This document shows positions 15,853 through 37,445 of a stretch of 64,000 bases of DNA, piece after piece. Made by a program: the position numbers and the translations under genes. The notes under the pieces were generated by a model. That model was not told the DNA's origin. It did no database searches and saw nothing but the letters and a program-made list of their open reading frames with translations. This stretch comes from a virus, in IMG/VR virus record IMGVR_UViG_3300005676_000004. The stretch is one strand, 5' to 3'. The stretch's first letter is position 1. Every line of letters starts with the position of its first letter.

Positions 15853-16763
15853 GAGTATTAGTAACAGGCGGCAGTGGTCTCGTCGGTAAACATCTAGCCG
15901 AGCATGAGCCAACTTGGAACTACTTATCTTCGTTTGACGGAGACCTCCGAGATCGAAATACTGTGTGGGACATCTTTGAATTTTACCAACCGGATGCAGT
16001 TATACATCTAGCGGCGAAAGTTGGTGGTATCCAATCAAATAGCAGCCAACCGATGGACTACTTCACCGATAATGTTCTCATAAACACGAACGTAGTTCAA
16101 ACTGCCTTAGACTTTGGAGTTAGAAAGTTTGTAGGACTCATCTCATCATGCGCATACACCGACGTATCCCCGTCGTATCCTCTTCAGGAGAATCAGTTAT
16201 TTGAGGGTGAGCCGCACATGTTAAACTATGGATATGGTATGGCAAAACGTATGTTAGCTGCGCAGATAAAGATTGCTCGGCAACATCTAGGTAAAAATTT
16301 TTCATATCTCATTCCGTCAAATTTGTACGGGTTGTATGAGACTGGCGATATTAGTGTCAAGCATTTCGTCGGTGCTCTCATGGATAAGATCATACGTGCC
16401 GAGGAAGGCGACGGCATCGTAACATTATTTGGTGACGGAACACCGTTACGCCAGTTTACGTATGCGGAGGATGTTGCTAACATATTGCGGCGTGTAATTG
16501 AACAAGATGTCTCTGAGAATTTAAACGTTTCTATTGATGAAAACTTAACAATAGATCAGATAGCTAGGATAGCTGTATCCGTGAGTGATAATCCAAACCT
16601 AACTATTCAATACGATTCCAGTAAACCCAACGGGCAGTATCGCAAGGACATTGATACTACATTACTTAAGAAAGTATTTGGAGATTTCAAATTTACTCCG
16701 TATATTGAAGGTCTTAGAAAGACTTACAGATTTTACAAAAACAAATCACGTGATGAAAATTAA
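15849..16763 (+). CDS. fcl: GDP-L-fucose synthase (epimerase/reductase)
   Basis: VLVTGGSGLVG, HLAAKVGGI, SSCAY, YGYGMAKR, PSNLYG and GDGTPLRQF. Confidence 0.93.
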   Translation: MRVLVTGGSGLVGKHLAEHEPTWNYLSSFDGDLRDRNTVWDIFEFYQPDAVIHLAAKVGGIQSNSSQPMDYFTDNVLINTNVVQTALDFGVRKFVGLISSCAYTDVSPSYPLQENQLFEGEPHMLNYGYGMAKRMLAAQIKIARQHLGKNFSYLIPSNLYGLYETGDISVKHFVGALMDKIIRAEEGDGIVTLFGDGTPLRQFTYAEDVANILRRVIEQDVSENLNVSIDENLTIDQIARIAVSVSDNPNLTIQYDSSKPNGQYRKDIDTTLLKKVFGDFKFTPYIEGLRKTYRFYKNKSRDEN

Positions 16764-16780
16764 CATAGAGGAATCGCTGC

Positions 16781-18130
16781 ATGGATAATAAGGGTGAAAT
16801 TCTTAATCTAGTTGAACAGTACATTAACACAAAGAACTCCCAGAAGTCATGGACTCCTGGGGAAGATTGGGTTCAATATTCAGGACCATATTTCAATGCA
16901 GAAGAGTATGTCGCTGCGGTTGATACGTTATTAAACGGGTGGTTTATTCTAGGTGAGAAGGGTAGAGAATTTGAAAATAAATTTTCTAAAATGTTAGGTA
17001 AGCAAGATGGTGTCTTTGTTAACTCGGGAAGTTCAGCTAACTTACTGATGGTGTCTATGCTACGCACACGACGTGGTGGCAACTTACCAGTGGGTAGTAA
17101 ATTTATTACCCCAGTAGTGTGCTTTCCGACCACGATAAATCCACTCATTCAGAATGGATTTAAGCCTGTCTTCGTTGATGTTGAACTCCCAAACCTAAAT
17201 CTTAACTTAGATCATGTTGAGAAACTTTTGGAGGAAGATACTGAGAAGGAGATTAAAGGTATCATATTTGCACATGTGCTCGGTAACCCCCCTGACATGG
17301 ACAGACTGATGTCTATTGTTGAGAAGTATAATTTGATCTATCTTGAAGACACGTGCGATGCTTTAGGTTCAAAGTGGGATGGTAAGCCGCTAGGTTCGTT
17401 CGGTAAACTTTCAACATGTTCATTCTTTCCTGCGCACCACATGACGACGGGGGAAGGTGGGTTCGTAGCTTGTAACTTACCTATGCACCGAATGGCGTTA
17501 GCGTCTCTTCGAGATTGGGGACGTGGGTGCTATTGCAATACAAAGAAGCCTGGTAACGTTATTGACGGAACTGCATGTGGTATGCGTCTGAACTCTTGGT
17601 TTAAAGATTATCCAGAGATTCAATACGACCATCGATATGTCTTTGAGGAAATTGGCTATAATCTCAAGCCAACCGAGATGCAAGCTGCGATGGGATTGGT
17701 TCAGATCACTAAACTTGATGAGATGCACGAGAGACGAAAACATAATTTTGCTAGAATGTATTCTATATTCGAACAATACTCTGAGTTCTTCCATCTGCCA
17801 TATTCTCTTGAGAAGGCAGACACGAGTTGGTTTGGATTTCTGCTGACACTTAAAGACGGTTGCCCATTTGATAAGAGTGAAATTGTTGACCATCTAGAGA
17901 GTGCAAAAATTCAAACTAGGTCGTACTTCACTGGCAATGCGTTGTTTCATCCAGCATATTCAACCATGTTCAAAGAACAGTATCCAGACCCAAAGAATCA
18001 GTTTCCAGTAGCCACTAAGACTACAAAGGATACATTCTTCACTGGTGTGTATCCTGGCATTACGGACGACCAGCTTGATTACATAAAAGTTGTAGTTGAC
18101 AACTTTATGTCAAAGTATACAGCGAAGTGA
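16781..18130 (+). CDS. rfbH: NDP-4-keto-6-deoxyglucose 3-dehydratase (RfbH/DdhC/E1, PMP- and 2Fe-2S-dependent)
   Basis: NSGSSANLL; SFFPAHHMTTGEGG with His in place of the PLP Lys; RDWGRGCYC...AC and YDHRY Fe-S ligand pattern. Confidence 0.9.
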   Translation: MDNKGEILNLVEQYINTKNSQKSWTPGEDWVQYSGPYFNAEEYVAAVDTLLNGWFILGEKGREFENKFSKMLGKQDGVFVNSGSSANLLMVSMLRTRRGGNLPVGSKFITPVVCFPTTINPLIQNGFKPVFVDVELPNLNLNLDHVEKLLEEDTEKEIKGIIFAHVLGNPPDMDRLMSIVEKYNLIYLEDTCDALGSKWDGKPLGSFGKLSTCSFFPAHHMTTGEGGFVACNLPMHRMALASLRDWGRGCYCNTKKPGNVIDGTACGMRLNSWFKDYPEIQYDHRYVFEEIGYNLKPTEMQAAMGLVQITKLDEMHERRKHNFARMYSIFEQYSEFFHLPYSLEKADTSWFGFLLTLKDGCPFDKSEIVDHLESAKIQTRSYFTGNALFHPAYSTMFKEQYPDPKNQFPVATKTTKDTFFTGVYPGITDDQLDYIKVVVDNFMSKYTAK

Positions 18131-18139
18131 TAGATTACT

Positions 18140-18991
18140 ATGCAATACGTTTCCTTCCAATCTCTAGGAGAGATAGGTAACATGTGTTCTCAGATGCAAC
18201 AGTTTGCATCATTATGTGCTGTTGCATCTGAGACTGGTCATGAGATACGTTTACCAGAATCGTCAAAAAGTCGTGGGTTCGGAATACGAATGTTTGATCT
18301 TCTTGACGTAGAACCTCAATATGAGCCGGATGAGTTCTTTCAGGGCTTTAAGCGTTTCAGACTTAACGAGAAGACACGCGTTGACGATAGAGTCTTTGGG
18401 TTAGATAGTAGCTATTCGTATTTCGTTGACGGGAGATTTGATCTCTTTACGTATTGGTACCCTAAACATGCTCAGCATGTTCTTGGATGGAATATACGCC
18501 CACAATTTGTAGAGAAGGCAAACGAGTTCATTCGGCGAGTTAAAGACTCGTATGAAACTAACGTAAGAGTGGTTGCAATGCATATACGTTTGGGTGACTA
18601 CCTTTTACCAGAGCATCACCATTTCGTTAGATTATGGCAGACTGATTACTACACCAAGGCGATGCAAGTAATAACGGAAAAGCATGAACATGTTAAATTC
18701 CTGATATTCAGCAACGACATTAAATGGTGTCGAGAGAATTTACTCCCCGACTCTTCAGATGAAGACTTTGTAGATACTAAAGATGACTGCTTAGATTTTG
18801 CAATAATGGCTAGCTGTGACGACATTATCATAGCGAATAGTTCGTTTAGCCTATGGGCTGCATTTATGAATAAGAATCCTGATAAGACTATAGTATGTCC
18901 GACGCAGTACTTGTATGAGTATAGTGAGTTTTCCCATATCAATGGTAACTACTATCCTAACGATTGGACGTCAATTAATATGGAGTTATGA
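18140..18991 (+). CDS. Glycosyltransferase family 11 (alpha-1,2-fucosyltransferase-like)
   Basis: GNMCSQ, HIRLGDY, FSNDIKWC and IIANSSFSLWAA. Confidence 0.9.
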   Translation: MQYVSFQSLGEIGNMCSQMQQFASLCAVASETGHEIRLPESSKSRGFGIRMFDLLDVEPQYEPDEFFQGFKRFRLNEKTRVDDRVFGLDSSYSYFVDGRFDLFTYWYPKHAQHVLGWNIRPQFVEKANEFIRRVKDSYETNVRVVAMHIRLGDYLLPEHHHFVRLWQTDYYTKAMQVITEKHEHVKFLIFSNDIKWCRENLLPDSSDEDFVDTKDDCLDFAIMASCDDIIIANSSFSLWAAFMNKNPDKTIVCPTQYLYEYSEFSHINGNYYPNDWTSINMEL

Positions 18992-19980
18992 TTATGGTAG
19001 ATACGAAGATAGTATATGTCACAGGCTGTGCTGGATTTATCGGGTGCACGGTGGCAGAATTATGCCTCAATATGGGATGGTATGTTATTGGTGTTGATAA
19101 GATGACATACGCGTCATCGAATGATGCGGTTAAATATCTACAGCAGTTAGGTGAAGATAGATTTAAGATGCTAACGTGTGACATCAACGACCTAACGTTT
19201 CTGTACGATTGTGATTACATCATCAATTGTGCTGCTGAGACACACGTTGGAAATTCGATAGTAAATTCTGATGAGTTTATTCATTCAAATGTCCGAGGTG
19301 TTCATCACTTGTTAAAATTGCTTCGAGAGTATAGGCAAGAAAACGGCAAGACGCCAACACTACTTCATTTTAGTACTGATGAAGTGTATGGTGATATTCA
19401 GTCTGGATTCCACACTGAATCTGATATGCTTCGACCTTCAAATCCATACTCTGCAACGAAGGCTGCCGCTGATATGCTTATATTGGCTTGGAGTAGAACA
19501 TACGGAATTCCATACGTAATTGTTCGCCCGACAAACAACTATGGGATCGGTCAATATGCTGAGAAGCTAATTCCGAAAGCGGTAAAGTATCTTGGGCTAG
19601 GTAGGAAGATTCCTCTACATAACGGGGGGTCTCCCGTGCGGAGTTGGTTGCACGTGTATGACACTGGAGCTGCAATAATTGAGATAATACTGAATGGTGT
19701 TGTGAACGAAATTTTCAACATATCGGGTGGATTTGAACAGACTAATGAAGAGACTGTTCGTAAAATAATATCATGTTGGAATGACATTCACCGAGACAAT
19801 CCCGATATGATAGTTGAATATGAGTCGGTTGTCGATCTTGGAATACATCGCGAAGGCCAAGATGTTCGATATGCTCTTGATGACTCAAAACTACGTTCTC
19901 TAGGGTGGACCCCAGTCGTTAACTTTGACGACACTATTGGAAGTATAGTGGAATACTACAGTAACAAATTTTTGTGGTAA
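18988..19980 (+). CDS. rfbB: dTDP-glucose 4,6-dehydratase-like SDR
   Basis: VTGCAGFIG, DKMTYA, AAETHV, STDEVYG, PYSATKAA, NNYG and RSWLHV.D. Confidence 0.9.
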   Translation: MIMVDTKIVYVTGCAGFIGCTVAELCLNMGWYVIGVDKMTYASSNDAVKYLQQLGEDRFKMLTCDINDLTFLYDCDYIINCAAETHVGNSIVNSDEFIHSNVRGVHHLLKLLREYRQENGKTPTLLHFSTDEVYGDIQSGFHTESDMLRPSNPYSATKAAADMLILAWSRTYGIPYVIVRPTNNYGIGQYAEKLIPKAVKYLGLGRKIPLHNGGSPVRSWLHVYDTGAAIIEIILNGVVNEIFNISGGFEQTNEETVRKIISCWNDIHRDNPDMIVEYESVVDLGIHREGQDVRYALDDSKLRSLGWTPVVNFDDTIGSIVEYYSNKFLW

Positions 19981-19987
19981 TACGAAA

Positions 19988-20209
19988 ATGAAATCACTAA
20001 CAGATAATACTCCGTTTAGCGGTAGAGCTATCTCATTAACGTTGCGAGTTGAGTTTCTTGATGAGTATATCAAGGAAGATGAGCTACACGTTGAAGTTAT
20101 AGGAGACTCTAGAATTGAACGTGTAAAACTTAATGCAGAGACATTTAAAGGTCGCTCCATTGGTGACGTCATCAATGAGTTGATACAACAACTTAATATT
20201 CGAGCTTAA
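19988..20209 (+). CDS. Hypothetical protein
   Basis: 73 aa; stop overlaps the next start. Confidence 0.55.
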   Translation: MKSLTDNTPFSGRAISLTLRVEFLDEYIKEDELHVEVIGDSRIERVKLNAETFKGRSIGDVINELIQQLNIRA

Positions 20210-22179
20210 TGACGAAAGGTAATAAGATGACAGTCGCAGAAGCAATATTCGCGTTCCTTAAAGGTGCTGGCTTTGAAATTGGATTCACAGTTACGGGTGG
20301 TGGCGCGATGTTCCTTAATGAAGCACATCGAAAATCACAACTCTTGTCGGTACACCATCATCATGAACAAGCTGCGGCAATGGCTGCTGTTGGCTATTCA
20401 AAGTCTACACGGAAGCCGTCATTTGTAGTGTGTACAAGTGGGTGTGGATCAACTAATACGTTGACTGGGGTTCTTGATGCGTATCAAGATGGCGTTCCTG
20501 TCTTGTTTTTATCTGGAAATGCTAACGAACAGCAGTTAACAGAGACCCATATTAAAAACTACCCAACTATGCGAAAGTTAGGAGTTCAAGAAAATGATAT
20601 TAGACCGCTCGTCTTTTCCATTACTAAATGTGCATACACCATTACTTCCGCAGATGTTGGGGGAGAATATCTCGTTGAATTATTACAAATGTCCGTACGC
20701 TCCATGTTTCAGGGTAACCCTGGACCAGTTTGGATAGACGTCCCGTTAAATGTGCAGTCGTTACAAGTTGATACATCAATATTTCCAGAAGGAGATGATC
20801 GCTTCAATAGAGCTGGATTAATGACTAGAGACTCTTGCAATGATGTCAACAGAAGGATATTCAGCAAAGTTCCAGCGCAAAAATTACTTAACGCTATAGA
20901 CAAGATAACGAAATCGAAGAGACCGTTATTTCTAATTGGCAACGGCGCATATCAATGGCTTGAGTCCGCGCCATACAATGAAACTCATTTGAATCCAATT
21001 CCTAAAGTGTTTACGTATTTAACTGCTGGATATAGACGATTGCATGATCCAGATACACCCGGTCTAGGGGTCGTTGGTATAAAGGGAAATCGCGCTGCCA
21101 ACTATGCAATGCAACATTGTGATCTTCTAATAGTATTGGGTTGTTCATTATCTACTCCAGTTACTGGATATGACTTAAGTAAATGGATTCCAAACGCATC
21201 TCTTCTGGTAGTTGATGTCGACGACACCGGAACAAGTAAATATGTTTTCGATAAATGGGTTTCTGACAATATTTCCAACGGTAGAAAACCTGGTAGTGAT
21301 TTTCATGCTGATTTTTTGAGGCAAGATGTTAGTGCATTCATGGATGCCTTGCGTTGCTTTGTGCATCCAGAATTAGAGTTTAATTGGTCTCCGTGGAGAA
21401 AGTGGTGTCACGCGCTTGCACGTGAAATGCATATTGAAAGTGAACCACACACCCCAGAAGACGACGATGATTCAGCTTTGAACATCTATACGTTTTTAAA
21501 TTGGCTGAGTAATACAGTAAACGAAAGAACAGATGGTAAAATAACAACCATAGTATCGGATGCGGGCAGCGCATACTACACAGTTTCACAGGCGTTTGAC
21601 TTCGGCCCATGTACACGATATGTAACATCTGGTGCACAAGCCGATATGGGGTTTGCTATCCCCGCAGCAATCGGCGTCCAAGTCAGGCATTGGCCGAAAA
21701 GTAACGTACACCATACCATGGCTATAACTGGGGATGGGTCAATGCTTACAAATGTCCAAGAGCTTACAGTAGCTGGTGGTATGAATTTACCAATAAAATT
21801 TATTATACTAGATAACAATGGGTATCTATCCATACGAAACACTATGGACAAATTCTTTAATTCAAAATATTTCGGAACTGATTGTAACTCTGGACTAGCA
21901 TTGCCTACTGATTTTAAGTCCATAGCAGACATGGCGTCTCTTGCATATTACGAGGTCAATTTAGAAAATCTGTTTGACGAAGATACACGGCAGATTTTTT
22001 TGAATAATACTCCAGCACTTATAAGAGTACGTTGTCTGCAACAACAAGATATAATACCAACCGTAGCCTCGCGCACTATGGAGAACGGTGAAGTTGTATC
22101 TCAACCACTAGAAAATATGTATCCGTTCCTAGATACTATGCCGTCAATGTATGTACCACAAATTCCATCAAATGTTTAA
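20209..22179 (+). CDS. ThDP-dependent acetolactate-synthase-like enzyme (YerE-like by context)
   Basis: HHEQAAAMAA, TSGCGSTN, SGNAN, GPVWIDVP.NVQ, and ThDP motif GDGS...DNNGY. Confidence 0.9.
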   Translation: MTKGNKMTVAEAIFAFLKGAGFEIGFTVTGGGAMFLNEAHRKSQLLSVHHHHEQAAAMAAVGYSKSTRKPSFVVCTSGCGSTNTLTGVLDAYQDGVPVLFLSGNANEQQLTETHIKNYPTMRKLGVQENDIRPLVFSITKCAYTITSADVGGEYLVELLQMSVRSMFQGNPGPVWIDVPLNVQSLQVDTSIFPEGDDRFNRAGLMTRDSCNDVNRRIFSKVPAQKLLNAIDKITKSKRPLFLIGNGAYQWLESAPYNETHLNPIPKVFTYLTAGYRRLHDPDTPGLGVVGIKGNRAANYAMQHCDLLIVLGCSLSTPVTGYDLSKWIPNASLLVVDVDDTGTSKYVFDKWVSDNISNGRKPGSDFHADFLRQDVSAFMDALRCFVHPELEFNWSPWRKWCHALAREMHIESEPHTPEDDDDSALNIYTFLNWLSNTVNERTDGKITTIVSDAGSAYYTVSQAFDFGPCTRYVTSGAQADMGFAIPAAIGVQVRHWPKSNVHHTMAITGDGSMLTNVQELTVAGGMNLPIKFIILDNNGYLSIRNTMDKFFNSKYFGTDCNSGLALPTDFKSIADMASLAYYEVNLENLFDEDTRQIFLNNTPALIRVRCLQQQDIIPTVASRTMENGEVVSQPLENMYPFLDTMPSMYVPQIPSNV

Positions 22180-22192
22180 GGATAACAAAATC

Positions 22193-23215
22193 ATGGGAAA
22201 CTCAGAAATTAGAATTCAAGATGGTAGAACACATTTTGATGTTCAGAAACAAGTAAAGAAGAAGAAAACAATCACTGAGCTTCGTGAGATGCGACGTAAC
22301 GCTAGACCTATAACATGGATAACTGCGTACTCGTATCCAACTGCAACGGTTGCCGAGAGAGCAGACATTGATATGATCCTCGTTGGAGACTCAGGTGGAA
22401 TGGTTGAGCTAGGGTACAAGAGCACAAATCCAGTTACTATGGATGAGATGATTAGTATGTGTAAAGCCGTACGACGCGGCGCACCTAAAACATTTGTAGT
22501 CGGAGATATGCCTCAGGGGTCGTATGAGATTTCCGATGAAGATGCCGTTACAAACGCTCTTAGATTTATTAAAGAAGGTGATTGTGACGCTGTTAAATTG
22601 GAAGGCGGTGAGAGAGTTGCATCTCGTGTAAAGGCAATCCACAATGCTGGAATAATTGTTGTTGGACACTTGGGGCTAACTCCGCAGTCTGCACAATCAT
22701 TTGGGGGTTATCGAGTACAAGGACGGACAGTTGATGAGGTAAAGCAAATTAGACGCGATATGCGTTCACTTGAAGATAGCGGGGCAAGTATCATTCTCAT
22801 TGAAGCTACTCCATCTGCATGTGGTGTATATCTTTCGTTAGCAGCTCGTCCCGATACGATCGTCATGGGGATTGGGGCTGGTAGGGGGGTTCATGGGCAA
22901 CTAGCAATTTTTCATGATGTTGTTGGATTTTATCCAGACTTTAAACCGAAATTTATAAAGTCATTTATTCCCGACGTTATTGGACATTTCAATGATTGCG
23001 TAAAGATGGCTGAAAATACTAGGTTAGTTAATGATGCAGTAATTCCTGGGTTTGACGGTGTTTTGATGTTAACAACTTTAGCTGTTCGCGAATATGGCAA
23101 CCAAGTACGAAACAAGGCATTTCCATCTAATGAATACATCTATTCAAACAACGATGCCAATGAGGAAAGTATTATGGAACTGTGTAATCAGTTACCTGTG
23201 GCTCTACGTCTATGA
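22193..23215 (+). CDS. panB: Ketopantoate hydroxymethyltransferase-like protein
   Basis: ITAYSYP, ILVGDS, VGDMP, VKLEGG, GHLGLTPQS and IGAG; AAGGA RBS before ATG 22193. Confidence 0.9.
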   Translation: MGNSEIRIQDGRTHFDVQKQVKKKKTITELREMRRNARPITWITAYSYPTATVAERADIDMILVGDSGGMVELGYKSTNPVTMDEMISMCKAVRRGAPKTFVVGDMPQGSYEISDEDAVTNALRFIKEGDCDAVKLEGGERVASRVKAIHNAGIIVVGHLGLTPQSAQSFGGYRVQGRTVDEVKQIRRDMRSLEDSGASIILIEATPSACGVYLSLAARPDTIVMGIGAGRGVHGQLAIFHDVVGFYPDFKPKFIKSFIPDVIGHFNDCVKMAENTRLVNDAVIPGFDGVLMLTTLAVREYGNQVRNKAFPSNEYIYSNNDANEESIMELCNQLPVALRL

Positions 23216-24159
23216 TAATCGTAACTGGTGTGCGTGGCTACCTCGGTTCTCTTGTCTACGAGAAGCTAAAAAAAGATGGAAAACATACCGTTGTTGGTAT
23301 AAGTAGACAAGATGTTGACTTAGAAGACAATTACGAGGTATTGAAATTCTTTACAGCTCAAAATGACATTGAGAGAATTGAAACAGTGATTCACTGTGCA
23401 TCTGCTGGTAACTCCGTAACACCAACAGATGACTTCTCAATTATTCCAGCAAATGTTAAGATGATGCAAAACATTTTATCTTCTATAGACACATCTAATG
23501 TTAGATTCATCTTACCATCTTCTGGAGCTATGAGAAATCGGAGTTTCGCATTTCACATTGATGTGGAAGAATACTTACGTGTTCCAACTGATGCCTATGG
23601 GTTATCAAAATATTTGTGTTGGCAAATGGCAGTCAATTTACCGAATTTTCTAGGTATTGTTATCTATGGTTTGTTCGGGGACACCGAACCAGAGTATAGG
23701 TTCTTTAAGTCAGTTATAACAAACGCACTACGGGGCGATCCTATCTATGTTTATGACGCAACTAGCATTATGGACTTTGAGTATACACCGAATCTTGTAA
23801 ATTTTATAAGTGATGTTGCGGTTGATAATAGTTGGCAGGGAAAAGTTGAGGTATTCCGACCTGAGAGAGATTCTCTGTATGGACATGCCATTTGTATATC
23901 TGAAAAATGTTACGCATACAAACAGAAACTCATCAATAGCGGCGTATTAATAGAATCTAACCCATACTATGCTACTGGCGTAAGTTCTGTGAACTTCAGT
24001 GACAAATATAAACCGAAATTCAAGTCGTCGTATATTGCACAACGTAATGTATCTTTGCGTAACAGTATGTTAGGTGGGGCGAAACTTTTATCACTTGAAG
24101 AAGGAATTGATGAGATGATATGTAAACTTGCACCAACCATACTAGGAGTAGAAATATGA
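23212..24159 (+). CDS. NAD-dependent epimerase/dehydratase/reductase (extended SDR)
   Basis: IVTGVRGYLG, HCAS, SSGA, YGLSK (YxxxK) and YGLFG. Confidence 0.85.
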   Translation: MIIVTGVRGYLGSLVYEKLKKDGKHTVVGISRQDVDLEDNYEVLKFFTAQNDIERIETVIHCASAGNSVTPTDDFSIIPANVKMMQNILSSIDTSNVRFILPSSGAMRNRSFAFHIDVEEYLRVPTDAYGLSKYLCWQMAVNLPNFLGIVIYGLFGDTEPEYRFFKSVITNALRGDPIYVYDATSIMDFEYTPNLVNFISDVAVDNSWQGKVEVFRPERDSLYGHAICISEKCYAYKQKLINSGVLIESNPYYATGVSSVNFSDKYKPKFKSSYIAQRNVSLRNSMLGGAKLLSLEEGIDEMICKLAPTILGVEI

Positions 24160-25658
24160 TTCAACCTATAAGTTTTTGTATACCAGTAACTGATACCGAA
24201 ATTGAGTATCTTGAGTTGCTTTTAACTTCGTTGGAGAAATCAACGAAGGCAGATATGCATGAAGTAATTGTCTTCGTTGATTCAGTCCATCCAGACCCTA
24301 TTGTAGATATGTTGCGACAACGGAAGAACCTATTTTCGTCGTTTGTAATCATGACTCTAGGTAGTAGTATTCCCCATGCAATTGGATTGCAACAAAATAT
24401 GTCATTAATGGTGGATGACTGCAAAAATAGTATCTTCTGCCATCTACAATCAGATATGGTAGCTTCGCCTGGAATTGATGAAGTAATAACTAGATATTTG
24501 TATGAAGGAGAAGATACGTCAACACCTCATCTGAATAGAGTGGTGTCTCTTACACGGATAGAACCACCATTGCATCCACCAAGCCCCGAAAAGATAACTC
24601 ACGACTTTGGGAAAAATCCATCTGAGTTTAATAATTTGGGATGGGATTCCTTTGTGTCATTCGTTGATAATACTAAAGTTGCTAAGATAGCCAAAGAAGG
24701 GAAGAAGGAACTACTTGATCAATTTTTCTCTCCATTTGCGATGTTTAAGCAATCATACATTGACGTCGGGGGTTTCGATACTATATTCTTATGCTCACGG
24801 GAAGATTCTGACTTCATAGTTCGGCTTCATTCCCTTAACTATGAGCTAATACAGCCACTAGAGGCAATGGTGTATCATTTTACATGTGTTGCTTCGCGAG
24901 GAGTGAATTGGTTTGATAACGAGAGTGAAGACAACCCGTCTAACCCATCAAGCATATACCAGTGGGCAGATATGGCGGAGGTTCGTCGTTTTATTCGAAA
25001 ATGGGGAACATTTGCTCATAATATTGAATACACATCATTTTCACAGTTGCGTATTATACTTGATTCCGACGTAACTCCTATGGTGATTGACGCCCTCCTA
25101 GATATAGAGCCGTATTTCTACAATATTCAGATAGAAGGCCCACACTCTCAGTTCTTAGCACATTTTCTTAACGCTACATGTCAATTTAATTCGGAGTACT
25201 ATACTGCTCAAAAGAGAAAGAGAGACGTGAATTTGGGGTTCTATTATGGTTTTAGATTCAATAGTGTTTATCCTAACGTAGAACATAAACGTTTACCCCT
25301 TCTAAATTCAGAGTTGACGTTACCAGTTTCTGTATTGAAGAAGGTTATTAGTAGTAATCATATACGAGATTTTTATGAATCTGTCGGCACACTCCATTTA
25401 TTACCGAAGACGCATGAGCCTGGAGTATATGACATACAGATAGTTCCGAACTCTAAGATACCAAGTGTGCAATTGAATATTTTATCAACTGAAAATAGAA
25501 TTCCTTTTATCGTAAATCGTGATCGCGATACGGTATACGATGGAATTGGTAGTATATTCAATACTGTAATTCGAAGATATGAAAAAGATCATACACTGTC
25601 GGAATCATCAGAAGAATATGCAAATGTTATAGTTTCTTCGGCATATAACGACTGTTAG
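24156..25658 (+). CDS. Glycosyltransferase family 2 with C-terminal extension
   Basis: ISFCIP, CHLQSDM, RIEPPLHP, GGFDTIF..SREDSD and VYHFTC. Confidence 0.85.
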   Translation: MIQPISFCIPVTDTEIEYLELLLTSLEKSTKADMHEVIVFVDSVHPDPIVDMLRQRKNLFSSFVIMTLGSSIPHAIGLQQNMSLMVDDCKNSIFCHLQSDMVASPGIDEVITRYLYEGEDTSTPHLNRVVSLTRIEPPLHPPSPEKITHDFGKNPSEFNNLGWDSFVSFVDNTKVAKIAKEGKKELLDQFFSPFAMFKQSYIDVGGFDTIFLCSREDSDFIVRLHSLNYELIQPLEAMVYHFTCVASRGVNWFDNESEDNPSNPSSIYQWADMAEVRRFIRKWGTFAHNIEYTSFSQLRIILDSDVTPMVIDALLDIEPYFYNIQIEGPHSQFLAHFLNATCQFNSEYYTAQKRKRDVNLGFYYGFRFNSVYPNVEHKRLPLLNSELTLPVSVLKKVISSNHIRDFYESVGTLHLLPKTHEPGVYDIQIVPNSKIPSVQLNILSTENRIPFIVNRDRDTVYDGIGSIFNTVIRRYEKDHTLSESSEEYANVIVSSAYNDC

Positions 25659-28928: not shown

Positions 28929-29084
28929 ATGAAAGAAATAACTGATTTCCTGTCCTTGTTACTGTCTAGCTTTGCATTTCTTGTGCTAGTGGCAGTTGCC
29001 ATCTTTGTAGTTACCTTCTTAGTTGGCATACCAGCATACTTCGGCATCCAAGCGGCAATAGCCGTAGCAACGATGATAGTGTAG
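28929..29084 (+). CDS. Small membrane protein (51 aa, below the ORF-track cutoff)
   Basis: MKEITDFLSLLLSSFAFLVLVAVAIFVVTFLVGIPAYFGIQAAIAVATMIV; first gene after the 28852 promoter, with AAAGG upstream. Confidence 0.65.
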   Translation: MKEITDFLSLLLSSFAFLVLVAVAIFVVTFLVGIPAYFGIQAAIAVATMIV

Positions 29085-29825: not shown

Positions 29826-30620
29826 ATGATCTGTCCAATTGTTTTGCACTCCAAGTCACCACTAAATCCGCTGAATCGGAGCTGTCCGACTGTAAACTCG
29901 GAAACCATTTCATCAGTTTCCGATGAGACTATACAGTCTATCGTGAGCGATCTCCAAGATTCTTTGGAATTTGCCGATGGACTAGGTCTTGCGATCAACC
30001 AATTGTATCGCCGTGGTAATGATGAACGTCTAGTATACGGTAGTGAAGAAATTGCATCTGTCATCGTCCGCCTAGGATACAACCCACAAGATACGTCTGC
30101 TTCAACTGAGACTATCGTGATGATTTCCCCTGTTATTGTAGATCACTCTCTAGAGGTCGTTGACTCTCAAGAGGCATGTCTATCAATTCCAGGAATAAAT
30201 CACACAGTCACGCGATATGCTTGGGTAGAAGTTAAATACTTCAATGAACTCCGGCAAGAGGTTACACGGAAGATTTCATTCCCAGACTCGGTAGTAGTTC
30301 AGCATGAGATAGATCATATTCAAGGGATGACGTTGCTAGATCACATGACTCCGATGGCGAGGCAGTTAGCATCGAACAAACTTAAGAAGATTGCACGTGG
30401 TACTGTGAAAATTCCGTATGTAGCGGTAACAGTAAACGAAAGTAATAACCGTACAACTACACGTGTAGTTGGCTTTGAGTATCTAACTCAAGCCCGTAGA
30501 CTTCAATTCATGCCGTTCTTTATGGGAACCAAATCTATTGAAGAGTCGTTAGATGAAATTCAAGACTCTGTCGGTGACGAAGTTGTCGCCGATGAAACAA
30601 CTGAAAAATCAATTTTTTAA
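29826..30620 (+). CDS. def: Peptide deformylase
   Basis: Motifs GLGLAINQ, EACLS and QHEIDH. Confidence 0.93.
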   Translation: MICPIVLHSKSPLNPLNRSCPTVNSETISSVSDETIQSIVSDLQDSLEFADGLGLAINQLYRRGNDERLVYGSEEIASVIVRLGYNPQDTSASTETIVMISPVIVDHSLEVVDSQEACLSIPGINHTVTRYAWVEVKYFNELRQEVTRKISFPDSVVVQHEIDHIQGMTLLDHMTPMARQLASNKLKKIARGTVKIPYVAVTVNESNNRTTTRVVGFEYLTQARRLQFMPFFMGTKSIEESLDEIQDSVGDEVVADETTEKSIF

Positions 30621-30642: not shown

Positions 30643-31077
30643 TTGTTAAGACTAATAGGATTTCTAGCGGTGATATGTATGATTTCCGCCGGAACAGTAT
30701 TTGCTCAGAGTAGTGCCAAGACACTTGTTGTAGGTGGAAATGGTAAGGTATCTCTCGGCCAAGTAATATCTGGATTCAATCGTGGGCATGTTGGTATTCG
30801 TATGCCAATTTCAACGACGTCTGGAATTATGGACGAGGATAACCCACTGATTCCATTCAGTGGTAAATTCTTCCCGAATCCATGCAACGGTGTAGTTCAA
30901 TATACTGGACCTACTCTCCGATCAATTCAAGCATTCACCATCCTCGGTAATGAACTTGAATCTTCGGCTGTCAGCTTAGAATCACAAACGATTACGTTTC
31001 CTGCTCGTGGTACTTACATAATCAAAATTGTAACCGAGCTAGGATTGCGTAAATCTTTTACAATCATTTACAAGTAA
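30643..31077 (+). CDS. Small secreted protein with T9SS C-terminal sorting domain
   Basis: TTG start after AAGGAG; signal peptide ...GTVFA|Q; C-terminal FFPNP...ILG...GTYIIKI...KSFTIIYK. Confidence 0.75.
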   Translation: MLRLIGFLAVICMISAGTVFAQSSAKTLVVGGNGKVSLGQVISGFNRGHVGIRMPISTTSGIMDEDNPLIPFSGKFFPNPCNGVVQYTGPTLRSIQAFTILGNELESSAVSLESQTITFPARGTYIIKIVTELGLRKSFTIIYK

Positions 31078-31103
31078 CAAATTTTTCACTAAAGGATAAA
31101 AAA

Positions 31104-32150
31104 ATGCGTCATCTTTTACTTGCTCTCGTAGCAATGTTTTCCGTAGCAGTTGCATCGTCACAGACTACACTGCAATACCAAGCTCATTCGCGTACACCGA
31201 GGACATCAATTATGTTCTCTGCGTACATTGCGGATAGCACATTTAACGAAGATTCACACCTTAACACTTCGGCGTTCTGGTATGTTGAGAACCAACAAAT
31301 CTTTGTTGAGAATGGGGTCGTAAACGCGACACTAGCAAACATACCAGACTCGGTGTTTAACGGGCGAGAAGGGCAACTATTTGTCTTTGGTTACGTGGAT
31401 GGACAAAGTCTAGGAAGACTCCCTATTAATACGTTACCATACTCACGATTCTCAACAAACGCAACTAACGCGTTGAACTCTCAGTTCTCAGACTCATCAA
31501 GGTCCTCAAACTTCGCAGTGTGGTCGGACTCATCTGGATTCGCCGGAAGAGCATATCAATCTGACTTTGCAGATAGTGCTAAATATTCCGACTCATCTAT
31601 GTTTGCAGATCGAGCTGATGTTGCGGGTGTAGCGTCGTTAGCAACTACAGCTCTTAAGGCTGATACCGCTATTGAAGCATTATCTGCCGATTGGTCGCAA
31701 TATTCCGATACTGCTACGTATTCTCATGAAAGTGGTTTAGCATACCTTTCAAACTCAGTTTCAAATAACGGGGTATCTGCGTATGCGATCAGTGGAGGGC
31801 AAACTGCACCAGCGGGGTCGGTTCTCACGAAGGGTGTTGGTAATACACTTGCGTGGCAGACGAATCCGCAATACTACACGGCTGACGTGATGATCTTCAC
31901 GGTAGCCCCTGGAGTTATCCCTTCAAACGTTCGTTACGTGGTATCGCGCGTAGCGTCAAATTATAGCATCGTTGCGCCTAGCAACCCCGAAACAAATCGT
32001 TTAATTACGATCTATAACGGAGCTACATTTAACAATGTAGTAATTAATGCTAGTACATGGGGTCTTGACGTCGGAGGAAACTTCACAATCTCCCCTGGCC
32101 AAGGCAAGACGCTCTGGTACAGTGGTGCGAATTGGGTGATTATTAACTAA
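31104..32150 (+). CDS. Secreted fibre-like protein with Ala/Ser/Asp repeats
   Basis: Signal peptide ...AVASS|Q; QYQ...NGVVNATL...TLPYS N-domain; repeated (A/S)xx(A/S)D units; beta-rich C-terminus ending YSGANWVII. Confidence 0.75.
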   Translation: MRHLLLALVAMFSVAVASSQTTLQYQAHSRTPRTSIMFSAYIADSTFNEDSHLNTSAFWYVENQQIFVENGVVNATLANIPDSVFNGREGQLFVFGYVDGQSLGRLPINTLPYSRFSTNATNALNSQFSDSSRSSNFAVWSDSSGFAGRAYQSDFADSAKYSDSSMFADRADVAGVASLATTALKADTAIEALSADWSQYSDTATYSHESGLAYLSNSVSNNGVSAYAISGGQTAPAGSVLTKGVGNTLAWQTNPQYYTADVMIFTVAPGVIPSNVRYVVSRVASNYSIVAPSNPETNRLITIYNGATFNNVVINASTWGLDVGGNFTISPGQGKTLWYSGANWVIIN

Positions 32151-32177
32151 TCATCGTTGATAGTTTGTAACCAAGTG

Positions 32178-32220
32178 GGGTAGTTGATTGTTATACAACA
32201 GTTAACTACCCTTGTTCTTT
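32178..32220 (+). terminator. Intrinsic terminator-like hairpin
   Basis: GGGTAGTTGA...TTAACTACCC stem followed by TTGTTCTTT. Confidence 0.6.
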
Positions 32221-32246
32221 TAGGGGTGGTAATAGTACCACTAGCA

Positions 32247-32255
32247 TATTTATAG
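32247..32255 (+). promoter_or_regulatory. TATTTATAG putative late promoter
   Basis: Follows a GTGGTA-atag-TACCAC hairpin; upstream of 32346. Confidence 0.55.
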
Positions 32256-32345
32256 TATGTACCGAGCTTACATGCTTGGTACACTTTTAAGTTTTGTAAA
32301 ATCATTTACAGTAGTTCTACGGATAGTTTCCAAGGAGTTTGTCGT

Positions 32346-35300
32346 ATGTACAATACATTTTTCAAGAATATCTTATTAGCGTTATCAGTGTTGGTTGGGA
32401 TAACAACCGCAGATGCGCAGACGTATCGGCGTATAGACCTCACGGAAGGTCGTCGGTATATGGTGGCATTCCCCAAGGTATGGGCTAGCAACACTGAGCT
32501 GCCACTTCCTCAGCCTATGCAGTTGCTTATTTCATCCAAGGTACGAGCGAAGGTACGGATATTCACGCCCGCTGTTATCAATGACGCTGGTGGAATTGAT
32601 CGCGAAATAATCGTAGAACCTAATAAGACAGCAAAAGTTCCAGTCTCTATATCGTATCTCCCGCAACCGGATGAGTCTGAGCGTCGTTTAGGATATGGTA
32701 TCCAAGTAACTAGTGATAAACCAATATCAGTTACTACCTACCAAGCGTGGATGGGTAACGGAGAATATGCAAGACACCTTCCAGTTGCATCTTGGGGTAA
32801 GACATATTATTCAATGAACTTCTATCAAGATCGTTACGGTACTGGTTCTCCATATAAAGAACGTCCTAGTCAAATCATTGTCATCGCTGATAAAGACAAT
32901 ACAGTAGTAACGTATACACCAACCGTTGGTACACAAGGTGGTATAGATGCACCAGCGACTCCAAAGAATTCATCAAGGACAGTAACACTACAGCGTGGTG
33001 AAATCTTCGTCATTAATGACAAAATTATTTCATCACAGATAAAAGAATTTACCACTGACTTGTCGGGTACATACATCCGAGCGTCTAAACCAATTGGCAT
33101 TGTCACGGGACACACTAAAGTAGCAATTATGAGGTATCCCGACGTATTACCTCCTACTGGTGGTTTTATGACGGAAGCACATTTCGTGCGTAATAACGTT
33201 CATGATGCTCAGATACCAAACGAGATGGCAGGGACGCGTTTTGTTACTGTACCAGTGATGTATACTGACAGCCGTGTTACTGGTATAGGTGCACAACAAT
33301 TTGGCATAGATGATGACCGTGGAGATGTGGTTCGTATTGTTGCAACTGAAGATGATACACGTATTACCGCACAACGAACTGATGGTAGCGGTATGAAGCC
33401 AGTTGCTCTTCTTCGTAAGAAGGGGGATTCGTATTTAGAGGTGTCCTTAGAGACGGCAACCTATTGGGAAGCTGACAAGCCAGTTCTCATAGGACAATAT
33501 GGTAAATCATATGCAAAGATAATACCTCCCGTCTTTGGCGTCGAGGATCGTAAGAAAACGATTTGGGATGTTCCGCAAGGACACCCAACAGTTGAGGCTG
33601 GTATGCCAATGTTACAATATATACCGCCTATCAACAGATGGGTTACCTACGGTGCATTCAATTCACCAGATCAGATGGATAACTTCTTTAACATTGTCTT
33701 TAACACTGGCGATCAGACTCGAATCAAATTTGATGGTCGTTTTATCGGAAGCATCTTTGGTGGGGCAATTAAACAGTTAGCAGGAACTCCGTACTCTTTC
33801 ATACGAGCTAGGATTCCGTCTGGAGATCATACTGTAGAATCTTCCGATGAATCTGTTAAATGGTCAGCATGGAATTATGGTTCGTTTGATGGCTTGCAAC
33901 AAGGCAGAGCGTATGGTACACCCATAGCAATTGATTTAGCACTGCCATGCGACGATACCATCCTCGTTGAAATTGATTCAACATGTGGTGACTGGAATGG
34001 TACAGTACGAATACAGTCAACTACTCCTGGATGTGCAAGTCTATTTGATATATTTTTAGATGATGAAGTTAATGCTACGTTGGCGTACAATGAAGATACA
34101 CAACCAACCCCACAAGGCGTTAGCGTTCCATTCGTAATTACAGTCGTTGACAAGACAAAGGCAGCATCAGGAACGTTATACGTGACCTCTAGGTCAGGCC
34201 TTCAATACAGCATACCATTTGAATATAAGCCAAATGCAATCTCTATAATTCCAGAGTTAATTGACTTTGGAGTAGTAGCGAAGGATCAACAAGTATGTAA
34301 GTCGTTGTTCATAACAAACAATGGTAATAAAGAGTTTTACATATCATCTATTCGCGCAAAGTCAAGTCCACAACTCATCAGTATAACCCCAAATCAAGTT
34401 CGTATACAACCAGATCAAACTGTAGAGTTTCAAGTATGTATAACCGGAACATTTAATGGGTCAGTTGTTGACACTGCGGTAATCTCGTATGCGGCATTCA
34501 TTGAAGATCAATTCTGTTATGAAGTGTCTCCAATTGAAATTCGAGCGCGTGTTGATGAGCCAGACTTCTTTGCGGGAGATCAAGATTGGGGTATAATTGG
34601 AAAGAACCAACGTGCTACGAAGACAATAACTCTCTTGAATGCTGGTAATGCTGACGTGGAAGTTTATGACTACAATCCAAAGTTGTCTGGGCCTAACTTC
34701 TCAAATCTCGTCGTTAACCTACCACTGCGGATAGCTAAGGGTGAGCGCGTCATCCTAAATGTAGACTATACTCCAAACGGAGAAGTTGGCGTAACGCACA
34801 CTCAACGAATTGATTGGGTAACAAATGCTACAAAAACAAAACTGTACTCAGACTTAAAAGGTCAAGGTGCTGACGCTGCACTTGAGATTACAAATTTAAC
34901 GTGGCTTGAGCGCGTCATAGATCAATGGCAGCGTGATCAAGGTATTAATGAATACGTAGATACGATATTCATCTCCAACGTTGGCTTGCGGAAGGCACTA
35001 ATTTCATCAATTACCATAGAAGGTCAAGACGCATCAAATTTCAGGATTGTTGATCAGTCGGGTGTTATAATGAACTCTGACGGTGGTATATCTAACATGC
35101 CGCTACTAGTTTCTTTTATACCTACAGAAATTCCTAATACTAGAGATGCAGAACGTTCATACAGAGCCAACGTTGTGATCAACTATAGTGTTGATGGTGA
35201 CGCTGCAACTGTTACGGGTGAGCTTAGCGGTACGGCTACACAACCTAGGCCATCTGCTACTGGATATAACTTCGGTACGATTTCAGTTAACGGTGTTGGT

Positions 35301-36749
35301 GCTGGAAATGTATTTATCTATAACGTTGACTCGGTGTTAACGAATGTGTTAACAAACAATGCCGACGGTACTATGGACATGCAACTGTTTGAGTTGACTA
35401 TTCCCGACAATACACCGTTTGTATGGGCTAGGTCTAACAGCAAAGTTCTCACGTATACACCACCAATAAATGTCCGCCCTGGTGACGCGTACTATGCCAT
35501 GGAAGGTGTGCGTTTTGAACCTACTACTGTTGGATCGTTTACTACACAATATGATATAAAGTACAATGGTCATGTAGTTGTACGTCCAACGTTGACAGGT
35601 GTGGCTGAGCAAACTATTCAGTTATCAGTTACAAACCTCCATCTTCTACAATGGATCAATCATTCTGTTGACGGTTTCTTTGAAGCATCATTGACTGCGG
35701 ATGGTGTAATTTCGGTAGATGATCCGTCGTCTGGTGACGCATTGAACTTCTCAATAGTCGGGTGGTCTACCGATGGTGGTACAACCATTAATCCTAACTA
35801 CCAGCAAATTCAATTGTCGGCGAACCAAGTGGCTAGAATTTATGTCCGATTTACACCTTCAATGGTAACGTCAGCAGGACTTAAAGCTGGCCAGTCCTTA
35901 AATGGAAGGCTTCCATATCGAGATGCAACATTTATGACGTCAGTTAAAGTACGTGAGCTACAATCTGGATTAACGGCGGATGCAGCAATCACAGGCGACG
36001 GAAAGTATCTTGAGACAACAGTGTACATTCCGGACTACACTAACGTAGGACTTGGTAAAGAGCATGTTGTCTACACATACTTACGTCCTACGCCGGAGCC
36101 AGTGGCAGAAGGTAAAATTCGTCAATTCAGAGCACGTCTATCATTTGATAATCGGATGCTGTATCCGTTGGGGGTTGTTCAACAAGGAACACAAACTGAT
36201 GGATGGCGAGTTGTATCGTACACTGTAATCGGTGGTAATATGATAGAGCTTGATATGAAGAGCGACAATCCAGTGAATGTTCTCGTGGATAATCCAGTAC
36301 CAATTTTTGGTATCAAATATCAGACGCTTATGGCACGTTCAACGTCAACGCCGCTTCCGATCCAATTGTATTGGGTCGACCTTGAGCAAAAGTTTGATGA
36401 GGATAGATTGTATACCGTCTTCAACTACGAGCCAGGAAGTATTAATGTCTTGACTCCATGTACCGGAACTATGCGTCTAGTCAACATGTTCTCCACGACG
36501 TCATATATACGAGTTCCAAATCCAGTAGTAGACGACAACATCTTAACGGTTAATTATGGAGTTCCAGTACCTTCAACCGTGTCCATGACGTTAACTTCAT
36601 ATGATGGTAAGCAAGTTTCACTTGTCAACGGCAAGCAATCAAATGGAGAGTATTCCTTAGAGTATGACATGAATACTCTTCCAACGGGAGTATACTTCGT
36701 ACGCTATAGTCACCTTCCAGATAACGTCATCCAGATCATAAAGCGATAA
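32346..36749 (+). CDS. 1467-aa secreted surface protein: IgGFc-binding-like N-domain, Ig-like (choice-of-anchor D-like) repeats, cohesin-like domain, T9SS C-terminal domain
   Basis: Signal ...TTADA|Q; ARHLPVASWGKTY, ITSDKPI and YGS.DG...AYG motifs; IDFGVV/QDWG/YNFG Ig repeats; C-terminal VPNP...YDGKQV...LPTGVYFVR. Confidence 0.85.
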   Translation: MYNTFFKNILLALSVLVGITTADAQTYRRIDLTEGRRYMVAFPKVWASNTELPLPQPMQLLISSKVRAKVRIFTPAVINDAGGIDREIIVEPNKTAKVPVSISYLPQPDESERRLGYGIQVTSDKPISVTTYQAWMGNGEYARHLPVASWGKTYYSMNFYQDRYGTGSPYKERPSQIIVIADKDNTVVTYTPTVGTQGGIDAPATPKNSSRTVTLQRGEIFVINDKIISSQIKEFTTDLSGTYIRASKPIGIVTGHTKVAIMRYPDVLPPTGGFMTEAHFVRNNVHDAQIPNEMAGTRFVTVPVMYTDSRVTGIGAQQFGIDDDRGDVVRIVATEDDTRITAQRTDGSGMKPVALLRKKGDSYLEVSLETATYWEADKPVLIGQYGKSYAKIIPPVFGVEDRKKTIWDVPQGHPTVEAGMPMLQYIPPINRWVTYGAFNSPDQMDNFFNIVFNTGDQTRIKFDGRFIGSIFGGAIKQLAGTPYSFIRARIPSGDHTVESSDESVKWSAWNYGSFDGLQQGRAYGTPIAIDLALPCDDTILVEIDSTCGDWNGTVRIQSTTPGCASLFDIFLDDEVNATLAYNEDTQPTPQGVSVPFVITVVDKTKAASGTLYVTSRSGLQYSIPFEYKPNAISIIPELIDFGVVAKDQQVCKSLFITNNGNKEFYISSIRAKSSPQLISITPNQVRIQPDQTVEFQVCITGTFNGSVVDTAVISYAAFIEDQFCYEVSPIEIRARVDEPDFFAGDQDWGIIGKNQRATKTITLLNAGNADVEVYDYNPKLSGPNFSNLVVNLPLRIAKGERVILNVDYTPNGEVGVTHTQRIDWVTNATKTKLYSDLKGQGADAALEITNLTWLERVIDQWQRDQGINEYVDTIFISNVGLRKALISSITIEGQDASNFRIVDQSGVIMNSDGGISNMPLLVSFIPTEIPNTRDAERSYRANVVINYSVDGDAATVTGELSGTATQPRPSATGYNFGTISVNGVGAGNVFIYNVDSVLTNVLTNNADGTMDMQLFELTIPDNTPFVWARSNSKVLTYTPPINVRPGDAYYAMEGVRFEPTTVGSFTTQYDIKYNGHVVVRPTLTGVAEQTIQLSVTNLHLLQWINHSVDGFFEASLTADGVISVDDPSSGDALNFSIVGWSTDGGTTINPNYQQIQLSANQVARIYVRFTPSMVTSAGLKAGQSLNGRLPYRDATFMTSVKVRELQSGLTADAAITGDGKYLETTVYIPDYTNVGLGKEHVVYTYLRPTPEPVAEGKIRQFRARLSFDNRMLYPLGVVQQGTQTDGWRVVSYTVIGGNMIELDMKSDNPVNVLVDNPVPIFGIKYQTLMARSTSTPLPIQLYWVDLEQKFDEDRLYTVFNYEPGSINVLTPCTGTMRLVNMFSTTSYIRVPNPVVDDNILTVNYGVPVPSTVSMTLTSYDGKQVSLVNGKQSNGEYSLEYDMNTLPTGVYFVRYSHLPDNVIQIIKR

Positions 36750-36761: not shown

Positions 36762-36798
36762 ACAGGGGGCAGTGAGTAGAAATATTCGCTGCCCCTGT
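36762..36798 (+). terminator. Terminator-like hairpin
   Basis: ACAGGGGGCAGTGA / TCGCTGCCCCTGT stem, followed by CCTTATTT. Confidence 0.65.
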
Positions 36799-36839: not shown

Positions 36840-37445
36840 ATGGTGAATATAAATTCATTGAACGGAATCATACCGTCGCACGTTTTAGCGGAGTTACCAT
36901 CCGTAATTGATAAGTTTCACATTAACACCCCCCTTCGCTTAGCACACTTCTTAGCTCAGTGTGCTCACGAGAGTGGTGGTTTTAAGCATGTCAGTGAAAA
37001 CTTAAATTACTCCGCCGATGGGTTACGTCGGGTATTCGCTAAATACTTCAAGCAAGGTGGGCTAGCGGAATCGTATGCTAGGAAGCCTGAGCTTATAGCT
37101 AGTAGAGTATATGCTAACCGTATGGGCAACGGAGATGAGGCTTCGCGTGATGGTTGGAAATTCCGTGGTAGAGGGTTTATTCAACTCACGGGAAAGAACA
37201 ACTATTCTGCATTTAACGACTTCGTCGATGACGACGTTGTATCTAATCCCGATCTCGTCGCTTCAAAGTATCCATTGACTTCCGCCGGATGGTTCTTCTA
37301 CAAGGCTGGGCTGAATGCTATCGCAGATAGAGGGTCTTCCGACGCAGTGGTCACTAACGTGACCCGTCGTGTTAATGGTGGTACGCATGGGCTTGCCGAT
37401 CGTATCAAGTATTTCAAACGGTATTATCCAATCCTAAACTCATAG
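36840..37445 (+). CDS. Glycoside hydrolase family 19 endolysin
   Basis: LAHFLAQCAHESGGF, ENLNYS, YANRMGNG, FRGRGFIQLTGKNNY and RRVNGG.HGL.DR. Confidence 0.92.
   Translation: MVNINSLNGIIPSHVLAELPSVIDKFHINTPLRLAHFLAQCAHESGGFKHVSENLNYSADGLRRVFAKYFKQGGLAESYARKPELIASRVYANRMGNGDEASRDGWKFRGRGFIQLTGKNNYSAFNDFVDDDVVSNPDLVASKYPLTSAGWFFYKAGLNAIADRGSSDAVVTNVTRRVNGGTHGLADRIKYFKRYYPILNS

Follow-up and report, generated by a model that had tools for sequence, protein, structure and literature searches.

Why would a T4-like phage carry three adjoining genes whose products seem to be addressed to the envelope of the cell that it infects? We considered this question for a locus within a 64,000-nucleotide stretch (the window) of IMG/VR virus record IMGVR_UViG_3300005676_000004, which comes from an uncultured freshwater jumbo phage. 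The three genes, here called g1, g2 and g3, lie on the same strand between a peptide deformylase gene and an endolysin gene. We consider it likely that the locus is a phage module producing envelope proteins for the infected cell. The predicted export route, which combines the Sec pathway with a type IX secretion system (T9SS), is the well-supported part of this reading, and we advance its purpose more cautiously.

Export and sorting signals

The three proteins begin with predicted Sec signal peptides, and in each a Gln follows the cleavage site (...AGTVFA↓QSS in g1, ...VAVASS↓QTT in g2 and ...ITTADA↓QTY in g3), as an initial annotation made from the sequence had read them (VFA↓Q, ASS↓Q and ADA↓Q). 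A Gln at this position is known as the Q-rule (Bochtler et al. 2018). The signal peptides were called with a simple rule-based check. A basic n-region, a hydrophobic core of 12–14 residues and small residues at −1/−3 are found in g1, g2 and g3 and are conserved in their relatives. This crude rule flags 13 of the 316 open reading frames (ORFs) genome-wide, most of the others resembling lipoproteins, and three adjoining exported products are therefore not a chance cluster.

The same annotation had assigned type-A T9SS C-terminal domains (CTDs) to g1 (FFPNP...RGTYIIKI...TIIYK) and g3 (VPNP...LPTGVYFVRY), and the assignment for g3 held up in profile searches. The curated cut-offs are 23 bits for TIGR04183 and 27 bits for PF18962. 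With TIGR04183, g3 scored 20.6 bits as a whole protein, 27.0 bits over its last 140 amino acids (aa) and 27.7 bits in a six-frame search of the genome; with PF18962, it scored 28.5 bits in the six-frame search and 24.0 bits as a whole protein. The bacterial orthologs of g3 carry PF18962. The g1 score of 20.9–21.5 bits is just below the TIGR04183 cut-off. All 29 aligned members of the g1 family match this model at E ≤ 0.01 (best 1.4e-10), its database relatives P0194–P0196 carry PF18962, and the g1 domain shows the PNP, D.xG and G.Y motifs. No sorting domain was found in g2 with any domain library searched. On these predictions, all three products bear Sec signals, and g1 and g3 bear T9SS sorting signals.

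The initial annotation also presumed a host with a T9SS. In the likely host group, we found SprA (TIGR04189), the T9SS translocon, above the cut-off in four of the five metagenome-assembled genomes (MAGs) with g3 orthologs, that of Ignavibacteria bacterium UBA2333 included. The GldM model gave zero matches anywhere, controls included, and is hence uninformative.

The viral origin of the locus was also borne out. The virus record spans 253,401 bp, has a CheckV completeness of 100% and contains a T4-type gp23 capsid gene. An independent viral contig of 39.8 kb (L004) keeps the order p119-deformylase-g1-g2-g3-endolysin, with protein identities of 30–42% (66% for the endolysin). Because L004 independently keeps the same gene order at such identities, a chimeric assembly containing host DNA is ruled out, and composition points the same way (41–46% guanine plus cytosine (GC) in g1–g3 vs 41% in the window).

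The large protein g3 and its exchange with host alleles

The description of g3 as a 1467-residue protein of the IgGFc-binding-like and immunoglobulin (Ig) type was confirmed by matches to IgGFc_binding (PF17517, E 1.7e-39) and to Ig-like and choice-of-anchor-D domains. The PF17517 match exceeds the gathering score, and a host paralog matches the same model at 184 bits. The choice-of-anchor D model (NF012200) scored 40.8 bits, under its cut-off of 45, and the orthologs are so named by NCBI. Full-length relatives (36–43% identity) occur in 70 bacterial MAG loci, with labels that are mostly Ignavibacteria or Kapaibacterium. These bacterial orthologs share one conserved chromosomal neighbourhood, where they are accompanied by an Lpt-like gene, a 1330-aa paralog, ksgA, a PAP2 phosphatase, another T9SS cargo gene and xerD. 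The 1330-aa paralog has the same head domain as the g3 ortholog and also a sorting domain. All g3 relatives retain a signal-peptide-like N-terminus, and the head domain (55–73% identity over 545 aa) is as conserved in the phage copies as in bacteria. Judged by these comparisons, g3 is the phage version of an Ignavibacteria/Kapaibacteria core surface protein. The g3-type neighbourhood was also seen on contigs labelled Didemnitutus, Bradyrhizobiaceae, Chitinophaga pinensis, Patescibacteria and Hyphomicrobiales, among others (L009, L010, L023, L028, L029, L037 and L055); these labels are probably binning or labelling errors.

Fold comparisons of the g3 head returned a best template modelling (TM) score of about 0.1 in Foldseek against the PDB, no hits in a PDB profile search, and a best Z of 7.4, at chance level, in a wide structural search.

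Scanning viral contigs with the single g3 protein gave no matches, and scanning them with the g3 alignment gave two loci. Among the phages that carry g1 and g2, g3 is confined to a few: the window phage, L004/L173, L087, L089 and L144. In the g3 tree, a fully supported branch (100) splits 15 sequences from 44 bacterial ones. The 15 comprise the window g3, P0001, P0002 and a group of ~1410 aa, and every member of known context is on a phage contig. Within this phage clade the ratio of nonsynonymous to synonymous substitution rates (dN/dS), an estimate that the initial annotation had proposed, is 0.17–0.20, with dS saturated. As judged from the tree and from dN/dS, g3 has been retained in phages for a long time under purifying selection. 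In the ~1410-aa subclade the CTD still aligns with the sorting domain (L004:13775-14194, L089:15700-16119 and L144:11305-11724), and the PNP and LPxGxY motifs are lost; this could be a decayed or retargeted tag.

Two phage genomes carry traces of exchange with host alleles. The 134-kb contig L003, from a different phage and encoding a clamp loader, a helicase, a terminase and a sheath protein, has g3 directly upstream of the endolysin gene. Its g3 has 95.7% nucleotide identity to an Ignavibacteria MAG from 65 nucleotides inside the ORF to 63 nucleotides past the stop codon, and the host terminator is therefore included. The GC content of this g3 is 49.5%, vs 42–43% for the phage flanks and 53.8% for the host contig. 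The L003 copy is a recent capture or allele replacement.

The g3 of the window differs along its length. Residues ~35–400 have 77–92% aa identity to the UBA2333 ortholog (P0003/L015), whereas identity to the nearest phage relative, P0001, is 39–80% and mostly 48–66%. Beyond approximately residue 540 the relation is reversed, with 45–61% identity to P0001 and 14–31% to UBA2333. UBA2333 is also the best bacterial DNA match in blastn (69.9% over 32445–33955). When the two parts were placed in separate trees, the head paired with UBA2333 (L015) and the remainder with the phage clade, with a support of 100 each. The approximately unbiased test rejects a tree in which the head is kept inside the phage clade (ΔlnL 254, p 5e-13). 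The 5' junction is found shortly after the signal peptide in both the window phage and L003. Window g3 is, by these alignments and trees, a mosaic of a host-allele head and a phage-type remainder. We infer that the head would have to fit a host partner or ligand.

The g1–g2 pair and the surroundings of the locus

Scans with the g2 alignment recovered 78 metagenome loci and 20 viral loci. In 49 of the 52 loci long enough to judge, g1 is directly upstream of g2. In 36 of the 52 listed loci, g2 or g3 has an endolysin ortholog (61–68% identity) downstream of it, usually within 0.4–1.7 kb of the pair; L003 has one as well. The genes g1 and g2 are a fixed, phage-specific pair in about 50 freshwater phage contigs.

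Homology favours a TTG start for g1 (144 aa); the first ATG, at 30553, gives 174 aa, and an ATG at 30592 is also possible. The short passenger between the g1 signal peptide and sorting domain is better conserved than the remainder of the protein, with invariant G, G, Q, V, G, I, R and P, and it had no match among 401 bacterial genomes sampled from the phylum.

No full-length relative of g2 was found in these 401 genomes. Its 72 metagenome relatives are all unnamed, its Protein Atlas cluster is 100% viral, and Protein Atlas look-ups returned unnamed clusters only. The signal-peptide-like N-terminus is kept in 20 of 20 aligned relatives (37–48% identity). In the predicted structure, the predicted local distance difference test score (pLDDT) is 80–90 in both end domains and ~30 in the shaft between them. 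The C-terminal domain superposes on the gp83 tailspike of Acinetobacter phage Solidus (Z 11.5, root-mean-square deviation 1.9 Å, 84 aa), in agreement with the earlier description of g2 as fibre-like, and also on the Mu tail fibre (Z 10.0) and CBA120 TSP4 (Z 9.0). This domain is common to many viral fibre proteins; against PF25692 (Phage_depo_C), g2 scored 21 bits with a cut-off of 25. A complex prediction for mature g2 with mature g1 gave a score of 0.00, which carries no weight either way.

In four related loci (L090:9373-9534, L109:9356-9538, L112:9353-9535 and L172:9373-9534) an extra gene of 53–60 aa lies just upstream of g1. Its product, which has a signal peptide and, behind it, a tail rich in Lys and Cys (...KKDHSCCKKD...), is predicted to be a third small exported member of the module.

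The initial annotation had treated the three genes as a single locus (Table 1). Their adjacency and common orientation stand; they do not, however, make up one unit. A terminator-like hairpin after g2 ends the g1–g2 unit. Since g3 is present in few of the g1–g2 phages and has terminator-like hairpins on both sides, it is an optional insert, separately acquired and host-derived, and not part of an operon with g1 and g2. The deformylase gene was seen alongside g3 in the window, L004, L087, L089 and L173; it is absent from L144, which has g3, and from all g3-less g2 loci examined.

The surroundings of the locus consist of phage-typical non-structural genes (deformylase, endolysin, methyltransferase and primase). 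When the region was compared with GenBank phages by blastn, the endolysin was the sole match. The T4 late-promoter motif TATAAATA occurs at 5 sites in the window vs 5.4 expected, and none is on the sense strand upstream of g1–g3. A sigma-70 promoter scan gave a count below the shuffled expectation. No paralogs of g1, g2 or g3 were found elsewhere in the phage genome, and the sequence thus lends no support to the idea that g2 might be a decoy copied from the fibre tip of the phage itself.

Table 1 Positions in the window of the three genes, their predicted parts and adjacent features
Feature	Position	Strand	Remarks
Peptide deformylase	29826-30620	+	PF01327 1.1e-25, phrog_2890; upstream neighbour of g1
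g1, predicted small T9SS type-A cargo	30643-31077	+	144 aa from TTG at 30643
g1 predicted signal peptide	30643-30705	+	cleavage VFA↓Q
g1 passenger, ~45-55 aa	30706-30870	+	motif K.LV.GGNG..LGQV..G...H.GIR.P
g1 predicted sorting domain	30871-31074	+	
g2, fibre-like protein with predicted Sec signal, without sorting domain	31104-32150	+	348 aa
g2 predicted signal peptide	31104-31160	+	cleavage ASS↓Q
g2 N-terminal beta-sandwich	31161-31424	+	
g2 Ser/Ala-rich repeat shaft	31434-31772	+	length variable
g2 C-terminal tailspike-type beta-sandwich	31881-32147	+	
Hairpin with T-run 3' of g2	32177-32212	+	terminator-like; 16-pair stem
g3, predicted T9SS type-A cargo	32346-36749	+	1467 aa
g3 predicted signal peptide	32346-32420	+	cleavage ADA↓Q
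Host-like tract within g3	32448-33545	+	residues ~35-400; nearest is the UBA2333 ortholog
g3 head, IgGFc_binding	32778-33857	+	PF17517 136.3 bits, E 1.7e-39, residues 145-504
g3 Ig-like/choice-of-anchor-D	34236-34493	+	
g3 predicted sorting domain	36516-36746	+	
Hairpin 3' of g3	36765-36796	+	terminator-like; 14-pair stem, 7 GC pairs
GH19-type endolysin	36840-37445	+	phrog_181 1.6e-70, PF00182; downstream neighbour

Possible roles of the exported proteins

We propose that g1, g2 and g3 are made in the infected cell, cross the inner membrane by Sec and are cut by signal peptidase I. The type-A CTDs of g1 and g3 would then be recognised by the T9SS of the host, and both proteins would probably pass the SprA translocon and be released or anchored at the surface. 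The g3 protein would present a conserved head, rich in beta structure, that is carried by a stalk built from Ig-like domains. The phage has kept its own signal peptide and stalk and exchanged the head of g3 with a host allele; the head would probably stay compatible with something in the host, leaving the stalk free to diverge. In this scheme g1 would deliver its short, highly conserved and phage-specific passenger, and g2 would be a phage-specific fibre reaching the periplasm at least.

The most likely purpose, which we put forward tentatively, is that the surface of the infected cell is re-dressed, with less adsorption of further phages or of the phage's own progeny; g3 would replace or dilute the host protein. 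We favour this purpose because the stalk is strongly diverged and g3 is missing from most related phages. Ranking second, and somewhat unlikely when taken by itself, is upkeep of a host function. Here g3 would do the job of the host protein (surface coat, adhesion or nutrient capture), supplied by the phage since host expression stops in a long infection, much as cyanophages supply psbA or the exported PstS, and g1 and g2 would be unrelated neighbours. The conservation of the head in phage copies at the level seen in bacteria is what this explanation would predict, as are the repeated refreshing of phage copies by host alleles, comparable to that of phage psbA, and the almost unaltered host copy held by L003. 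Indeed, a g3 head that follows the alleles of the host is at least as readily explained by upkeep or mimicry of a host function as by the receptor masking, exclusion, aggregation or grazing defence that the initial annotation had suggested. However, the old phage clade has a stalk and a sorting domain that have moved far from those of any host (14–31% identity), one subclade has lost its recognisable sorting domain, and most related phages are without g3, which is therefore dispensable for replication. A further reading, 'mimicry by allele tracking', strikes us as improbable. It holds that the site beside the endolysin gene is a dedicated slot into which the host's core T9SS surface protein has repeatedly been copied or partly converted, with a phage signal peptide and stalk kept and a head that follows the current host. 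A compatible but altered subunit would thereby be inserted into the host surface coat or receptor array, with the g1 passenger and the g2 fibre as exported partners acting on the same structure.

Two further explanations start from g1 and g2. The pair could contribute to lysis or its timing as periplasmic or outer-membrane partners of the endolysin, in the manner of spanins or of T4 rI and Spackle, with g3 as a passenger. T4-type phages do time lysis and exclude superinfection with small exported proteins, the pair lies ~0.4–1.7 kb upstream of the endolysin gene in 36 of the 52 loci, and the same conserved backbone encodes a 51-aa two-helix membrane protein (28929-29084, + strand). We nevertheless consider a lysis role unlikely. 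Backbone gene order is conserved generally, so the adjacency of the endolysin may carry no meaning. Neither g1 nor g2 has a lipobox Cys after the signal peptide, and their hydrophobic cores lack the length needed to anchor them in a membrane; they do not correspond to a two-component spanin, with its membrane-anchored i-spanin and lipoprotein o-spanin. The T9SS sorting domain would moreover direct g1 to the outside and not to the periplasmic face, and a separate candidate spanin pair exists in the same genome. Less probable still is a place in the virion for g2, and perhaps for g3, as a fibre or decoration, with apparent signal peptides that go unused. This would account for the superposition of the g2 C-terminal domain on tailspike and tail-fibre domains (Z 9–11.5), a domain that many viral fibres share. 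It would not account for the signal-peptide-like N-termini kept in all 20 aligned g2 relatives and all g3 relatives. Nor does it suit the position of the locus among non-structural genes, the lack of g2 paralogs elsewhere in the genome, or the fact that the orthologs of g3 are chromosomal bacterial genes.

Several observations weigh against our reading of the locus as a module for envelope proteins. The mosaic structure of g3 may merely reflect recombination that needs a conserved region, which the head provides, and not selection. The g1 of the window falls 1.5 bits short of the curated TIGR04183 cut-off, and the signal peptides come from a simple rule-based prediction. The CTD of the largest phage g3 subclade (~1410 aa; L004, L089 and L144) matches no T9SS model, and T9SS export is therefore not universal for phage g3. 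The head of g3 and of its host ortholog has no informative structural match, and the host of the window phage is assigned by gene similarity alone. Finally, g2 has no sorting domain, resembles a virion fibre and has no known route across the outer membrane.

The initial annotation had taken the use of the host T9SS for a phage strategy not described before. This proved incorrect. Three genes ending in T9SS type-A sorting domains were reported in 'Cryophage', and their authors proposed that the phage commandeers the secretion of its host, perhaps with effects on competition or superinfection (Bellas et al. 2020, Nat Commun, PMC7468147). In crAss-like phages, ORFs with T9SS sorting domains adjoin ORFs with BACON repeats (de Jonge et al. 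2019, PMC6949934), and Q-rule signal peptides have been noted in Porphyromonas phage proteins (Matrishin et al. 2023, PMC10367356). Like the window phage, Cryophage is an uncultured Bacteroidota-type phage with several T9SS type-A cargo genes, and its cargo varies between phage variants. Its cargo differs in consisting of an endoglucanase, a glycoside hydrolase (GH39) and a PA14 protein in metagenomic islands, whereas the window locus combines what we take to be a copy of a core host surface protein, recombining with host alleles, with the fixed g1–g2 pair. The ORFs of crAss-like phages are alike in carrying T9SS sorting domains, but they lie near head and tail genes and are discussed as possibly structural or carbohydrate-binding, with no host ortholog or recombination shown.

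Other comparisons extend beyond T9SS cargo. Cyanophage psbA recombines with host alleles, and the phosphate-binding protein PstS is exported through Sec. As in the case of g3, a working copy of a host gene is kept and phage–host exchange produces intragenic mosaics; the cyanophage genes have known metabolic roles, however, and g3 would need a second, phylum-specific secretion system. Envelope superinfection-exclusion proteins include T4 Imm and Spackle, T5 Llp and lambda-type Cor. All are phage-encoded and have export signals, and they block further infection from within the envelope of the infected cell; a functional likeness may be suspected. They are small and use Sec or lipoprotein routes in Proteobacteria, and none is known to copy a host surface protein or to use the T9SS. 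In Tannerella forsythia, the S-layer pair TfsA/TfsB consists of two large T9SS-secreted proteins with genes side by side. The host locus of g3 likewise encodes two large paralogous T9SS cargo proteins, of about 1330 and 1500 aa, with a few kb between their genes; this likeness is one of layout, and S-layer formation by the host proteins is not implied. New here are the core host surface protein as cargo, the recurrent exchange with host alleles, and the conserved pair of g1 and a fibre-like g2 with predicted export.

Phage genes with a type IX secretion tag have so far been noted in metagenomes, and this locus provides three handles on them. The clear host counterpart of g3 makes phage and host versions directly comparable. 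The exchange of the head domain points to the part that matters and suggests a UBA2333-like Ignavibacteria host for this uncultured jumbo phage. The phage-only pair, a small passenger and a fibre with predicted export, recurs across about 50 freshwater phage contigs. If the host protein were a receptor or a coat subunit, the locus would show lytic phages altering the surface of infected cells in a new way.

Some further features of the phage genome touch on lysis and the envelope. The 51-aa membrane protein described above has versions of 55–60 aa in related phages, upstream of a Zn-ribbon gene and p119, and is a holin-like candidate. Outside the window, at G000:C1:49844-50583, the gene for a 121-aa protein that has a membrane helix at its N-terminus overlaps by 4 bases with the next gene, which encodes a predicted lipoprotein of 125 aa (MKTILLILMIVIG↓C); this layout makes them a candidate i-spanin/o-spanin pair. 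Two adjoining small predicted lipoproteins of 70 and 85 aa (...LS↓GC and ...LT↓GC) are encoded at G000:C1:128700-129166, also outside the window. Upstream of the locus and on the same strand (8794-25658, +) is an extended series of genes for glycosyltransferases, an aminotransferase and sugar-modifying enzymes. A lipopolysaccharide serves as the anchor of T9SS type-A cargo, and this series is therefore conceivably tied to surface remodelling.

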